A stretch of 64,000 bases of DNA, taken from positions 168,330,001 through 168,394,000 of the forward strand of contig JBNRSN020000004.1 in assembly GCA_051313645.2 (NCBI GenBank), given 5' to 3'. The notes beneath the pieces were generated by a model. The model was not told the DNA's origin and searched no databases. It saw nothing but the letters and a program-made list of their open reading frames with translations. The stretch is from Centroscyllium fabricii. Lineage: Eukaryota. Shown one piece after another: positions 30,913 through 37,911 of this stretch. Within the stretch, counting starts at the first letter, position 1. Each line of letters starts with the position of its first letter. The position numbers were made by a program, and so were the translations under genes.

Positions 30913-31546
30913 CAGCAAAATCAGCACGCTAGACAGTAAAATATATGGTGCATGTTGCTGATCTCGCTGTTGCTGGGAAGTCTAACCAATATTACTGCCT
31001 TGAAATGTTATTGTATATGCAGTTAATATTCTTACCAAAAGATGGCCTAATAGTAGTATTTGGCTTACTGGTGCATGCACATTCTTACTTAATCATTGCA
31101 TATTACAACTTCAGGAAAACAGAACATTCTGATTAATGGAATGAAGTAGAAACTTTTCTAAAGAGTTAGCTTTGCTACAAGGGAGGGGTAGGAGAGTCAG
31201 GGTGCTACAAAATAAATGTTTTTCACTTGCCCAGTCAGGCAAGTGGATTTCTAAAACACTTGCCGGAACACAAATTTCACTTGCCCGAAATTTTTAAAGA
31301 AATAAATAAAGATTTTACCTTTTTATTAAAATGCTTTAATATAAAGCCATAGATTATGATTGTGCGTTTAGTTGCATTGGCGGTTTCTGCCCCTCTCTAT
31401 TATCCTCTCCATCCTATTCCACCTTTAAAAATCTTTTCAAAAATCTATTTCCTCAATCATTCACTCCATTTCTTCATTTCGCTCTTCCAAACTTTCTGTG
31501 AAGCCTCCACAGGCCGCGGGCTCCCTCACTCTGTCTCCCCGCCTAC

Positions 31547-31688
31547 CTTTGTCCAGCAGCCGCTCCAGGTCCGTGAAGATGCTGCAAAGGTTGGGCAGGC
31601 TCGACGTCAGCTTCTTGTCATTCATCAGCTGCATCAAATAGTCGGGACTGGGTCTCGGCTTCTCCTTCACTCCCATTTCCACCACCAT
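31547..31688 (-). pseudogene. QKI: Captured QKI (quaking) family coding exon 1 with native donor
   Basis: [47 protein letters not shown]; 142 coding nt then AAG|GTAGGC; no downstream QKI exons seen. Confidence 0.9.
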
Positions 31689-32065
31689 CCTTTTATAGAT
31701 ATTTTCCCCCCTCTGAGGAGTAATTATAAAGATTTTATAATTGATCGAAAGAATAAAGACCGAGTTGGTTTTTTTTCTTCAGAAGCCGCTCCGGTTTTCT
31801 CTCTTCCCCCTCAGCGGGTCGACGGCACCGACCCACTCCACCTAACCTGACTGCTGCCCTGTCCCGATTGTCATGCTGCCTCCTTCAATCACCGCCACGC
31901 CGCCCATCTCTCTCCTCTCTCTTTCCCCCCCCCCCCCCCCCCCATAGCCAATCCTCACCCGCCTCCAGGGCTGGATCCACCCACCCGTTCCCGTCATCAA
32001 CCAATCGATTTGATGCGCCACCTCCTCCAGTCGACCGCCACGGCAAACCGAGACGTAAACACGAT

Positions 32066-33517
32066 CATAGAAACTAGGAGCAGGAGTAGGCCACTCGGCC
32101 CCTCGAGCCTGCTCCGCCATTCAATGCGATCATGGCTGATCATCCAAATTCAGTACCCTGTCCCTGCTTTCTCCCCATACCCCTTGATCCCTTTAGCCTT
32201 GAGAAATATATCCAACTCCTTGAATATATTTAATGAATTGGCCTCCACCGCCCTCTGTGGTAGAGAATTCCACAGGTTCACCACTCTCTGGGTGAAGAAA
32301 TTGCTCCTCATCTCTGTCCTAAATGGCTTACCCCTTATCCTTAGGCTGTGACCCCTGGTTCTGAACTCCCCCACCATAGGGAACATCCTTCCTGCATCTA
32401 GTCTGTCCAGTCCTGTTAGAATTTTATAAGTTTCAATGAGATCCCCTCTCATTCTTCTAAACTCCAGCGAGTATAAGTTTAATCGACCCAATCTCTCCTC
32501 ATATGTCATTCCTGCCATCCCTGATGAATCTTCGCTGAACTCCTTCCATCGCGAGAACATCCTTCCTCAGATAAGGTGACCAAAACTGCACACAATACTC
32601 AAGATGTGGTCTCACCAAGGCCCTGTATAACTGCAGCAAGACATCCTTGTTCCTGTACTCCAACCCTCTCACTACAAAGGCCAACATACCATTTGCCTTC
32701 TTAACCGCCTGCTGCACCTGCATGCTTACCTTCAGCGACTGGTGCACAAGGACACGCAGGTCTCGTTGCACTTCCCCTTCTCCCAATCTATTGCCATTCA
32801 GATAATCAGCCTTCCTGTTTTTGCCACCAAAGTGGATAACCTCACATTTATCCACATTATATTGCATCTGAAACACCCAACCTGTCCAAATCATACTGGA
32901 GTTTCTCGGCATCCTCCTCACAGCACACACGCCCACACAGCTTTGTGTCGTCTGCAAACTTGGAGATCTTACATCTAGTTCCCTTGTCTAGATCATTTAT
33001 ATATGCCATTCAATGAGATCATGGCTGATCATCCAAACCCAGTACCCTGTCCCTGCCTTGTCCCCATATCCCTCTCGAGCCTGCACCGACACACATCCCA
33101 CCCGATCACCGTAACCCCACATATTCAATCCCCCTAACACTAAGGGTCAATTTATCATGGCCAATCAACCTAACCTGCACATCTTTGGACTGTGGGAGGA
33201 AACCGGAGCACCCGGAGGAAACCCACGCAGACACGGGGAGAATGTGCAAACTCCACACAGATAGTACCCGAGGCTGGATTTGAACCCGGGTCTCTAGTGC
33301 TGTAAGGCAACAGTGCTAACCACTATGCCTTCTGAAAGTCCAAATTCACCACATCCACTGGTTCTCCCTTATCTATTTTACCAGTTACATCCTCAAAAAA
33401 TTTCAGTAGATTAGTCAAGCACAATTTACCTTTTGTAAATCCATTTTGACTTTGTCCGATCCGGTCACTATTTTCCAAGTGCTCTGCTATTACATATTTT
33501 ATGATGGACTCTAGCAT
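32066..33517 (-). mobile_element. CR1 LINE fragment inside the Pack element
   Basis: RT peptides CLTNLLKFFEDVT, KANGMLAF, EFRRMRGDLIE; tail at 32066. Confidence 0.9.
33005..33325 (-). mobile_element. V-SINE inside the CR1
   Basis: Reverse complement of 13139-13480; ATGCC on both sides. Confidence 0.85.
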
Positions 33518-34514
33518 GGCACACTCCAATCAACCCCTTCAATACAACTAAACCAGACCTGCAATCAATACGAAACCCCAAATGACACCTAATCATCATT
33601 TTGTATTCTACCACCCAAACCGTAGCCACGTTTAGTACCCTGAAAGCCAACCCCATCAACTCAACCCTGCCCAACTCAAATCTCCGGTCAAAGAACATCT
33701 TTAACCCCATCAACATGTAGCACTGAACTGTGCAAGAATAGTAATGCATTTAACTGAATGTTATACAACTTTTGCTGTACTACTTCAAGATAATAAGCAA
33801 ATTTTGCACAATTCAACAAAAATATTTTTAAGTCCATTAAAATGCCAGTTCATTGTACCCTGTATTAGTGCACGTGTGGTCACAGTAGCAGCAATTTTAC
33901 AGTAACCCGATAATGCCCTGTAACATGGAATAAAATAAAACTAAATATTATTTCGGTTCAAATCATATATTACAATAAGTTTAAAATCACGATTCAATTT
34001 CAGGAGCCCCCAGACTCCTTAATGACATAGGCAGCCGGGTTGAACACACTTGAGAAACCCACCACACTAGACATAAATAAGGCAACACTGTGGCGGTTGT
34101 CCACTGATAAACTAATGCACCTTTGTATAAAGTCAGCATCCACTGCCTTATAACGCAGGTTATCCTATGTCTATGGGAGGGTGGATAAACACTGTAGTGT
34201 TTTACAGATTAAAGCCTGAATTTAAAAGCTGGCGGCTATTCCCCAAGTATAATGTAAAACGCCATTGCACGGGACAGAAAGCTTTGGGGGGCCAGGTGAA
34301 CCGCAGACATGGATGGACTCGGGGCTGTGCTGTGTGTTGGTTGTTCAGTGTCAGGCGGTGCTGTCTACACACCCTCCCGAACCGCAAATACAACTCGGAG
34401 CACCGAAGGGACACCATTGCAAACAGCCCAATCCGGCACTTCAAATAAACCCACGAAATTAGCTCAGAAACGAAATGTGCCACAAATTTCGACGTCGTGG
34501 CTTAATAGCATGGG

Positions 34515-36400
34515 CTAACTTGAAAAGGGGTATCATGAAGGCCAAACGCAACTACTCAATGACGATTGAGGACCATTTTCAAAATAATACAGACCCCCCG
34601 GCGCATGTGGCAAGGCATTCAAACCATCACTGATTATAAGAGCAAGAACACCTGCCCCCCCCCCCCACCAGTGACGCCTCCCTCCCTGACGAGCTTAACA
34701 ACTTCTATGCTCTCTTTGACATGAACAACAGGGAGCCAGCCACCTTAGCCTTGCTACCCCTGGACGATCAGGTGCTCACACTGTCCATCTCTGACGCAAG
34801 AGGTTCTTTACGCAGAGTGAGCACACGTAAGGCTGCCGGCCTAGACGGTATCCCTGGACGAGCTCTCAGGGCATGTGCTGACCAGTTGGCTGAGGTCTTC
34901 ACTGACATCTTCAACTTATCACTGGCTCAGGCAGTGGTCCCCACATGCTTTAAGACCACAACCATCGTTCCGGTGCCAAAGTTGGGATGTGCCTGAATGA
35001 CTACCACCCTATTGCACTCACTCCCATTATAATGAAGTGCTTCGAGAGACTGGTCCTGACACACACAAAAGCCAGCGTGCCCGCCACCCTAGATCAACAC
35101 CAGTTTGCCTACCGCACAAATAGGTCAACTGAAGATGCCATTTCATCTGCTCTTCACTCCACTTTGACCCACTTGGAAGGCAAAGACACCTACGTCAAAA
35201 TGCTGGTCATCGATTAGAGCTCAGCATTCAATACCATCATCCCGACCAAGCTTGCAACCAAACTCCATGCCCTTGGCCTTAACACCTCCCTCTGAAAATG
35301 GACCCTGGACTTCCTGACGAACAGACCCCAGTCTGTTAGGTTATGTAACTTCACCTCCACCACCCTAACCCTGAGCACCGGGGCTCCACAAGGATGCGTG
35401 TTGAGCCCTGTCCTCTACTCCCTCTTCACCCATGATTGTGTGCCTGTCCACGACTCCAATACCATCATCAAGTTCGCGGATGACACCACAGTGGTGGTAG
35501 GACTGATCACCAACAATAACGATTCAGCCTACAGAGAAGAGGTCCAACACCTTGTGGCGTGGAGCGCTGACAACAATCTGTTCCTCAACACCAAGGAGCT
35601 CATTGTAGACTTCAGGAAGTCCAGAGACATCAGACACACCCCGATCTACATCAATGGGGCTGAGGTGGAAAGGGTCTGCAGCTTCAAGTTCCTGGGCGTC
35701 CACATTATGGAAGACTTCTCATGATCCCTCAACTCATCCTCCTTGGTGAAGAAAGCTCAGCAGCGCCTATACCTCCTGCGGAGGCTGAAGAAAGTTAATT
35801 TATCCTCCCAGCTTCTCTCCAACCGCTACTGCTGCACAATAGAAAGCATCCTGACGAACTGCATCACGGTGTGGTATGGCACCTGCTCCACCTCCTACAG
35901 GAAAGCCTTGCAGCGAGTAGTCAAAACTGCCCAATACATCACCGGTACCCAGCTACCTGCTATTCAAGACATCTATGAGAAGCGTTGCCTGTGGAAATCT
36001 CTCAGCATCACCAGGGACCCCAGCCACAGACTGTTTGCCCCCCTGCCATCTAGGAGGTGCTACAGATGCATTCGAGCCCGGACGACCAGGCTCAGGAACA
36101 GCTTCTTCCCTCGGGCTGTTATCCAGCTGAACTCTATCACTCAACACCAAATCTGTCTACCATCGGCACCCCACCTGCACTTTCTGCATTAACAGCCCTT
36201 TTGCCCCCCCAGCACTTGCTCATCTACTCTTTGAAATGCTATTTGCACTCTTTATTCATTTATCTATTTATTTATTATTTATCCATAACTCTGTATAATT
36301 TATAACTTAATGTCTGCTATGTCATGTCCTGGTAGCTTGTGAGCTCACTTTTTGTTGCACTGTGCTTATAGACTGTGCAATGACAATAAAATTGAATTGA
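34515..36400 (+). mobile_element. Rex1/Babar-type LINE (RT region), same family as 17763-18689
   Basis: [49 protein letters not shown]; AATTGAATTGAA tail. Confidence 0.9.
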
Positions 36401-36608
36401 ACAAAATAAAATTAATATTTAGCTCAGATAAGCCACCGGTAAAGTTCAACAAGCGCATAATTGTAACCAAATAAAGCACAATAGGGGTCACTGCCAACCG
36501 TCAGAGAACCGGACCATTTACCTCAGACTCTTAACCCAGATATAAGCATCTCCACAGACATGCACGGAATCAGCTTTGAGAAGATTGCCCTCCCTTTTCC
36601 CCCATCTC

Positions 36609-36731
36609 TCACTGGATAGTTTTCCGCCCTTGTCTCCTTCTGCGCTGTAAAATGAAGTAAGAATTGGGGTTTTCCGTCACCCAGAGCTTGAGAGCATTTT
36701 TCAGCAGCACTTCTTCAGGCTTTAGCCACAT
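36609..36731 (-). pseudogene. TBC1D8: Captured N-terminal coding fragment of TBC1D8 (TBC1D8/8B family); 40-aa ORF, absent from the ORF track
   Basis: Manual translation [40 protein letters not shown]; the first ~35 aa match the TBC1D8 N-terminus. Confidence 0.87.
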
Positions 36732-37911
36732 AATGAAAACCTCACGCGGACATCAGAAATGTATGCAGTTTCTTTCCTTCCTCAGTCAAATGCTAGTCAC
36801 CTAGATTGGGTTTTCTGTCCCGCCATTGCTTATATTGACCAAACACACTTTCTTTCCACCTGTACTAAGCCTTACAGTGCACCTTCCCTGGGGCTCACAA
36901 TCTACGCTCATCCCGTGGCCTTGATCATCGATGTGAAATACATCGGGCAAGTGCGATTTTCATTTGCTTGCCCTTCGGCGCATTTTGCTTGCCCCGGGCA
37001 AGCGGTTTTGTCGCGACCTGGGAGAGTGAAGAAAATGTACTGAGGCGTACTCGAGTAATTAGAATAACACTTATAGGTAAAACACAATCCCTGAATAATA
37101 CATACATTTCTTTGAATCCTGCTGTTTTCGCCTCTGCTGTTTAGTTTTCCTAAGACAGTATCTACTGTGCCTGAGTACCTACCAGCTGCCAGGACTCCAC
37201 AACTCCAACTTTCAACTGCTCACTAGATGATGTGCAAGAGCCTAGGGAGGATTTGGCAGATTTCCTACTCTTCCCCCAGCAATATGGCCAAGATAAAAAC
37301 TGGAGCAAAGTGGGAATTAAACCTGTTCACGCACAATAGATGTCAAGAAAGCAGTGCCCTGAACTATTGGATTGCCTTTCATGGTAGTGTTATGTAACAC
37401 GTTTCCAATAATTTTAAAGGACTTAATTCCTGAAAAATAAATCTTCCTGTTTCAGTTAATTTTGTCAGTTTTCATGAGAACTTTTGAAGATTTCAGAGAT
37501 ATTGGAAATCTCCACACTATTGGTTGATCAGATTGACCCTGACAGTGTACCCGGAGAGAACTATGGTTTTTACCATTTCCCATTGTAGAACGCAATTGGG
37601 CTGGGATATGCAAAACTAGAAAAAGTGACCAATATTATTTAGGCTTACTAAACACTAATGCAAAAGGATTTTGGAAAGTGACTGTTTATGGTTCACTTGG
37701 AGCATCTCTTGTAGTTTGAATAATAAACAATTTGCTCTATTGTTGAGGTGTTATTGGTATGACTCAGATCTCTTTACATTACAAATGAACAGCATTGTAC
37801 TGATACTCATTGGTATGCGTGTGTTTTTTTTGTTAGCTGTGTATATAGAAATGCCCACGAATCTCCAAAAGCAAACTGCTGAGAAGTAAACATCAGTAAT
37901 TCCCTTTTGTT

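Follow-up and report, generated by a model that had tools for sequence, protein, structure and literature searches.

The window analysed here is a 64,000-nt stretch of Centroscyllium fabricii (GCA_051313645.2, contig JBNRSN020000004.1, positions 168,330,001 to 168,394,000 of the forward strand), a species with a genome of 7.2 Gb whose nearest protein matches come from sharks. It contains MIOS on the + strand. Between MIOS exons lies a transposable element, at positions 31198–37020, that carries the 5' ends of two other genes, QKI and TBC1D8, both antisense to MIOS. The element is bounded by imperfect terminal inverted repeats (TIRs) of 15 bp (31198–31212 and 37006–37020), which match at 12 of 15 positions in this copy. 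These are flanked by an identical 7-bp direct repeat, GGAGAGT (31191–31197 and 37021–37027). CTTGCC/GGCAAG motifs are grouped near both termini (at 31226, 31238, 31259 and 31280, and at 36946, 36967, 36988 and 36997). Removal of 32066–33517 and 34489–36399 leaves about 2.46 kb of the element, and no transposase is present in the window copy. An earlier note, made from the letters alone, had described the TIRs, the repeat, the motif arrays, an interior of about 2.5 kb lacking a transposase, and gene pieces antisense to MIOS. All of these were confirmed in the sequence.

The arms of the window copy were 82–95% identical to those of elements of about 3.3 kb that encode a transposase of the ZNF862/C17orf113 type. 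A search for the zf-C17orf113 domain (PF25431) gave 23 loci, and about 15 of them had the right arm 500–900 nt upstream of the same transposase start. When 16 of the loci were extended, most also had the left arm, matching 31198–31353, and several were 3.2–3.4 kb long with 5-bp target duplications. The left arm was 81–92% identical to that of the transposase-bearing elements, and the homology ended at 31353. The hAT dimerisation domain (PF05699) scored above the cut-off in one locus (L354) and below it in another (L347). Because the arms match those of elements encoding a hAT transposase, placement in the hAT superfamily, which the earlier note had offered tentatively, is established. Since the matches to coding elements end at these limits, 31198–31353 and 36915–37020 are the true transposon parts, and the remainder is cargo.

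A search for the partner through PF05699 did not find it: none of 50 loci examined (150 scored; 2,497 candidates) had the arms adjoining its own transposase, and the arm near one such locus (L264) belonged to a separate element. An unrelated hAT was seen at five loci (L218–L222). Its dimerisation regions are almost the same from locus to locus, its open frames reach 871 aa, and the family is probably young. The stretch at 31354–31513 has a frame resembling a hAT C-terminus. It was rejected as a transposase remnant, since its stops were common to nearly all copies and a peptide search gave no protein match; it matched neither the coding elements nor 15 kb of QKI intron 1.

The genome-wide search with the termini that the earlier note had proposed was made. 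A strict left-end pattern gave 1,067 + 1,028 = 2,095 exact matches, and its reversed control gave none. Searches with the left arm and with the right part both gave matches at many loci, and the copies occupied distinct target duplications at separate loci. The element is real and mobile, and belongs to a cut-and-paste family. The pattern recovered 33 of 70 left ends that had not been selected by it, which scales to roughly 4,500 elements, a figure based on left ends rather than right ends that takes in coding copies and cargo-less derivatives. A 29-mer within the QKI exon had 290 exact matches in the genome and recovered 22 of 66 exon-bearing copies, giving an estimate of about 900. Both scalings are rough, as the sampled copies were selected by similarity. 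A STAR_dimer profile search of the genome gave 1,181 candidates, and all 150 that were scored exceeded the cut-off.

Among 62 complete copies, counted without redundancy, 38 had an exact target duplication. It measured 5 bp in 24 of them, 6 bp in 5 and 7 bp in 9, so that 5 bp was the modal length and 14 of the 38 were longer. The other copies had one mismatch at 5–7 bp (15) or no duplication (9). None of the 62 had an exact duplication of 8 bp, the canonical hAT length, or longer. This count skipped pairs that end at an inner terminus-like sequence; a recount with ends defined by BLAST and without that filter gave exact duplications in 32 of 58 copies (18, 7 and 7 at 5, 6 and 7 bp) and none in 26. 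The background was 0.12% in 3,306 mismatched flank pairs. All three lengths were present inside the TBC1D8-bearing subfamily. The repeat in the window had been regarded as one base short of the usual 8; instead, this family makes duplications of 5, 6 and 7 bp.

QKI exon 1 lies at 31688–31547 on the − strand with its GT donor intact, and its product matched Pfam STAR_dimer (E 6.6e-13) and quaking in PDB. The segment 31514–31880 was 79% identical to the parental QKI locus (L098, G000:C834); the NLS exon of QKI follows 164 kb downstream of this locus. The parent has no TIR, and only 33 nt of QKI intron 1 was captured. Core copies of about 1 kb, made up of the hAT arms, the QKI 5' untranslated region (UTR), exon 1 and little intron, existed without the TBC1D8 block; in these, 32068 was joined directly to the right arm. 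The QKI coding part was deleted with both flanks kept in many copies, and its motif occurred within 1.5 kb in 3 of 25 left ends of a position-ordered sample. In a common short subfamily (L130, L145, L147 and others), the deletion lay between two copies of a 7-nt repeat, and its members also contained a GC-rich segment in duplicate and an inner sequence resembling a terminus. Tandem expansions were seen in the parents at the start of QKI intron 1 (L098:4900-5347) and in the RYK promoter (L150:4500-4750), and in none of the captured copies, which therefore appear to keep the older state.

The TBC1D8 start, at 36731 on the − strand, was 94% identical to shark TBC1D8. Both donor genes recognised by the earlier note were thus confirmed, and the mapping of pieces to parents that it had proposed led QKI to L098 and TBC1D8 to L073, neither with TIRs. 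The parental TBC1D8 gene is at G000:C1:173595111-173727367 (−), and L073 holds its exon 1. L073 matched 32066–36911 in order, CR1 included. The exceptions were a short interspersed element (SINE) and a long interspersed element (LINE), both private to the window copy; the LINE gave reverse transcriptase (RVT_1) matches, and we take it to be Rex1-like. Without the private inserts, 32066–36908 reads as a single contiguous TBC1D8 block of 5' UTR, exon 1, intron 1 and intronic CR1 (Table 1). The several further exon-donor pieces proposed earlier are instead TBC1D8 intron 1, leaving two identified donor genes in the window copy. A splice donor placed near 36521 falls inside that intron; the real one is at 36612. 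The CR1, formerly read as a later insertion, has the variants of the parent and arrived with the block.

Table 1. Parts of the element in the window and the basis for each
Feature	Position	Strand	Basis or remark
Left target site duplication, 7 bp	31191..31197		Sequence, identical to 37021-37027
Left hAT arm (TIR 31198-31212 and subterminal motifs)	31198..31353		Downstream of transposase in coding copies
160-bp stretch, common to most sampled family copies	31354..31513		No match to coding elements or to 15 kb of QKI intron 1
QKI fragment	31514..31880	-	5' UTR 31880-31689; exon 1 coding 31688-31547; first 33 nt of intron 1 31546-31514
GC-rich stretch with CCAAT motifs, part of founder core	31881..32065		Likely more QKI upstream sequence
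CR1 LINE, 5'-truncated	32066..33517	-	In TBC1D8 intron 1 in parent L073; captured block ends at its 3' tail
SINE private to window copy	33005..33329	-	In place of about 200 bp of CR1 that sister copies keep
TBC1D8 intron 1, distal part	33518..34488	-	88% to parent L073:7398-8507
Rex1-like LINE fragment private to window copy	34489..36399	+	RVT_1 matches; sister copies join 34488 to 36400
TBC1D8 5' end	36400..36908	-	5' UTR 36908-36732; exon 1 coding 36731-36613 (8-nt deletion); intron 1 start 36612-36400
Second copy of 3-nt target CAT	36909..36911		Also at 32066-32068; empty core copies have one CAT
Right hAT arm with TIR 37006-37020	36915..37020		Upstream of transposase in coding copies
Right target site duplication, 7 bp	37021..37027		Sequence

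The TBC1D8 exon was carried by at least 31 distinct copies, 13 of which kept the exact junction, and the block occupied one fixed site in its subfamily. Its 3' end coincided with the 3' tail of the CR1; a 118-kb sample of other DNA contained 14 such tails. The CR1 of the block had 6 of 7 diagnostic variants in common with that of the parent, one of them about 50 nt from the tail, and independent CR1 copies lacked them. The 5' junction corresponded to L073:9036, 169 nt upstream of the ATG. Spliced TBC1D8 contigs of other species (4 of 4 runs from 4 studies, presumed RNA) ended at L073 positions 8995, 9018, 9028 and 9057, which gives a hint of the start only. Comparison of empty with filled copies showed that no base of the target was lost and 3 nt (CAT) were duplicated. 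CR1-type LINEs prime at their tails via microhomology. Because the block starts where transcript contigs start, ends at a CR1 tail and duplicates a 3-bp target, an RNA route is likely, and we interpreted the block as probably a 5' transduction of unspliced RNA by CR1, a term for the joint copying of a truncated LINE in sense orientation and the unspliced host RNA upstream of it (concept in PMC12593883). Retained intron had been taken in the earlier note as a sign of DNA-level capture. With a transcript start at one end and a LINE tail at the other, the intron is no proof of this, and the claim fails for the TBC1D8 block; capture by gap repair may fit QKI.

The CR1 piece was also considered as a fixed-length non-autonomous element, and this was rejected since most independent CR1 copies extend past 33517. 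Its truncation there and another in the RYK-bearing subfamily (L107:7087), although different in origin, fall within about 3 nt of each other, which suggests a hotspot for truncation or template switching.

Protein search revealed RYK exon 1 in this second subfamily, with about 50 exon-1 matches besides the parent. The RYK piece matched its parent at L150:4729-5383, which has no TIRs, and no LINE tail was found at the end of the piece; a PDB search with it gave chance matches only. Within RYK exon 1, a CR1 3' piece and 317 non-CR1 bases lie together in one 5-bp duplication, and RYK followed the module in 33 of 34 loci. The clean duplication around CR1 and the extra bases suggests that this LINE delivers additional 5' sequence here. 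A later module, which comes from G000:C113 (parent L278, without TIRs) and is called C113 here, is nested in the RYK piece, with 4–5 nt of microhomology on both sides and about 53 nt of RYK sequence removed. Its junctions fit the pattern expected of gap repair, and capture of that type may also apply to QKI and RYK. Four copies (L009, L011, L029 and L136) had a further module of about 450 bp in the RYK piece with a short ATG-initiated frame. RYK exons 2 onward occurred twice in tandem, with near-identical scores, at G000:C224:170.77-171.47 Mb, either a real duplication or an assembly artefact.

A third subfamily (L099 type, about 28 copies sampled) had a GC-rich gene start, with an ATG in good context, at L099:2050-2420, and also an exon-like piece on the + strand. 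Upstream of this ATG were what we take to be a GC box and a CRE-like motif, and the start of the RYK block had a presumed NRF1-like motif. All 30 loci from a search for the parent of this 'C' module were family copies, and ESM Atlas gave no usable match. LTR-retroelement-like inserts with open frames of more than 1,200 aa were seen within two family copies (L100 and L112). The three identified gene starts were richer in GC and CpG than the window background. The family has captured gene 5' ends in series, first the QKI core and then TBC1D8 or RYK. The serial capture that the earlier note had proposed thus holds at the family level. Its proposed mechanism, template switching in gap repair, fits the C113 junctions and may fit QKI and RYK, whereas the TBC1D8 block is likely RNA-derived.

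Overall, we are fairly confident that the element is a non-autonomous hAT with a QKI core, a likely CR1-primed addition of TBC1D8, and likely mobilisation in trans by a hAT transposase. Several points weigh against this. Microhomology is an equally good reading of the 3-nt CAT, and the right junction has imperfect microhomology that fits DNA template switching, a type of capture by which the family also took up the C113 module. The TBC1D8 transcript start was taken from assembled contigs, which do not show the true start. The source of the 317-nt module was not found in 35 loci examined of 59 candidates, and template switching, instead of transduction, may have brought it in with CR1. On the side of the transposase, the longest frame (692 aa, with zf-C17orf113, a weak hAT dimerisation match and what we take to be DDE-type motifs) stops early, and no intact copy was seen among the zf-C17orf113 loci examined.

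These points bear on the alternative that all the cargo, TBC1D8 included, was captured as DNA by template switching in gap repair or replication, in the manner of Pack-MULEs or FoSTeST, with the ends of the block set by chance or by open chromatin. The short microhomology at both TBC1D8 junctions, the microhomology and recipient deletion at C113, and the presumed NRF1-like, GC-box and CRE-like motifs, which suggest promoter DNA, would all be expected from it. Breakpoints of Pack-TIRs commonly show microhomology as well (PMC8277862). However, at 14 tails per 118 kb a random breakpoint has a chance of about 6e-4 of lying 5 nt or less from the 3' end of a CR1 in sense orientation, no target was deleted at the TBC1D8 site, and a second insertion of CR1 plus flank has a clean duplication. 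We consider capture of the block as DNA unlikely, though it is the best of the alternatives.

Another question was whether the copies have been retained as a source of a QKI promoter, first exon and donor, yielding chimeric transcripts or small RNAs with an effect on QKI. The GT donor was intact in 72 of 78 copies, so that chimeric transcripts would be possible, and many copies kept an open exon frame. The parent and family QKI exons differed at 5 synonymous and 0 non-synonymous sites, and family copies diverged 3–5% from the commonest letters. However, among 92 QKI copies the copy-private pN/pS was 0.66, against 0.51 expected without selection from the arm mutation spectrum, and thus not below the neutral expectation; 34 of the 92 had indels. 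The scarcity of the coding motif near left ends, and the window copy itself, which is antisense to MIOS with its TBC1D8 exon frameshifted, also argue against retention. The copies appear to decay neutrally, with no sign of selection on the QKI peptide, and the cargo reads as a passenger rather than a selected gene. Retention for function is very improbable.

Least probable of all is that a short CR1 entered the transposon first and that recombination or gene conversion with the CR1 in TBC1D8 intron 1 then brought in the upstream gene region: this would account for the exact end at the tail, and CR1 conversion tracts occur in the subfamily (L171, L173, L175), but the variants of the parent are present in the block CR1 starting some 50 nt inside the tail, and no CR1 joined straight to the core was found in the extended junction copies, two of which (L167 and L169) are interrupted by nested inserts and uninformative. 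The tracts, at L173:2511-5543 and in L171 and L175, reflect gene conversion or recombination between the block CR1 and other CR1 copies; in L173 the sequence extends into a long CR1, and TBC1D8 exon 1 is connected there to another donor-like sequence.

Under the preferred reading, in which CR1 added TBC1D8 to a hAT with a QKI core, the founder would have lost its transposase and gained the 5' region of QKI in its place, with template switching in gap repair as the probable route. Next, the truncated CR1 that lies in sense orientation in TBC1D8 intron 1 would have offered its tail, in unspliced RNA, to CR1 reverse transcriptase. In a single transposon copy the enzyme would have started synthesis at a CAT and continued as far as the TBC1D8 transcription start. 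The hAT transposase would have raised the new TBC1D8-bearing unit to a few dozen copies, and the private SINE and LINE inserts and neutral decay would have followed.

An animal survey listed 370 Pack-TIRs in 100 genomes (PMC8277862). Of these, 208 were in hAT, the commonest carrier, and only four in vertebrate reference genomes were multicopy; the main text of the survey nowhere uses the word 'shark'. In its frog example, Pack-hAT-N8_XT, a 5' UTR piece was amplified with distinct duplications, the illustrated case having three copies (PMC8277862). Like these, the present element is a TIR DNA transposon of hAT type with a host gene fragment and breakpoint microhomology; unlike the survey cases, it belongs to a family with no fewer than 290 copies of the QKI exon, and about 900 by estimate, in which successive captures are nested and RNA is the likely source of one of them.

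In rice Pack-MULEs, acquisition has been linked to open chromatin near gene starts, and GC-rich pieces are preferred (PMC5861414). Like the present element, they are non-autonomous, have TIRs and copy GC-rich parts of genes, but they are Mutator elements of plants with 8–11-bp duplications, whereas here a hAT with 5–7-bp duplications inherited a single founder cargo. The hAT5, hAT6 and hAT7 groups also have duplications below 8 bp, one length for each group (PMC12730594). Here 5 bp is commonest and 5, 6 and 7 bp occur within one subfamily; the likeness is in having a hAT transposase and short duplications. In SVA_F1, transcription from an upstream gene promoter joined a first exon to a retroelement, which is present in at least 84 reference copies (PMC12593883). 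The joining of a gene first exon to a retroelement followed by amplification is similar, but SVA_F1 arose by splicing and spread by retrotransposition, whereas here the intron was retained, CR1 was the carrier and a DNA transposase made the copies.

In the literature searched, which lay outside Repbase Reports, subscription journals and the supplements of PMC8277862, we found no prior description of a hAT with mixed 5–7-bp duplications, a gene-capturing DNA transposon in sharks, 5' transduction by CR1, a retrocopy in a DNA transposon, or a mobile ZNF862/C17orf113 hAT. The family is a form of animal Pack-TIR, unusual in its copy number, its nested captures, its probable mixture of RNA and DNA capture and its mixed duplication length.

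A wider proposal is a relay from LINE to hAT, in which CR1 would repeatedly write the 5' ends of nascent unspliced genes into hAT, and the transposase, with its variable 5–7-bp stagger, would spread promoter-plus-first-exon cassettes from conserved genes to hundreds of loci, some of which would start chimeric transcripts with the QKI dimerisation region. We regard this general form as unlikely. Earlier work on vertebrates described multicopy gene-carrying DNA transposons as scarce and present in few copies; here a single founder brought the first exon of a highly conserved RNA-binding gene to hundreds of copies. The nested subfamilies keep the parent locus, the empty site and the filled site together, which makes the mechanisms of capture directly readable, and the mixture of 5–7-bp duplications offers a case in which to test what fixes the stagger of a hAT transposase. 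About a thousand copies of the first exons of QKI, RYK and TBC1D8 will disturb gene annotation and read mapping in this genome.

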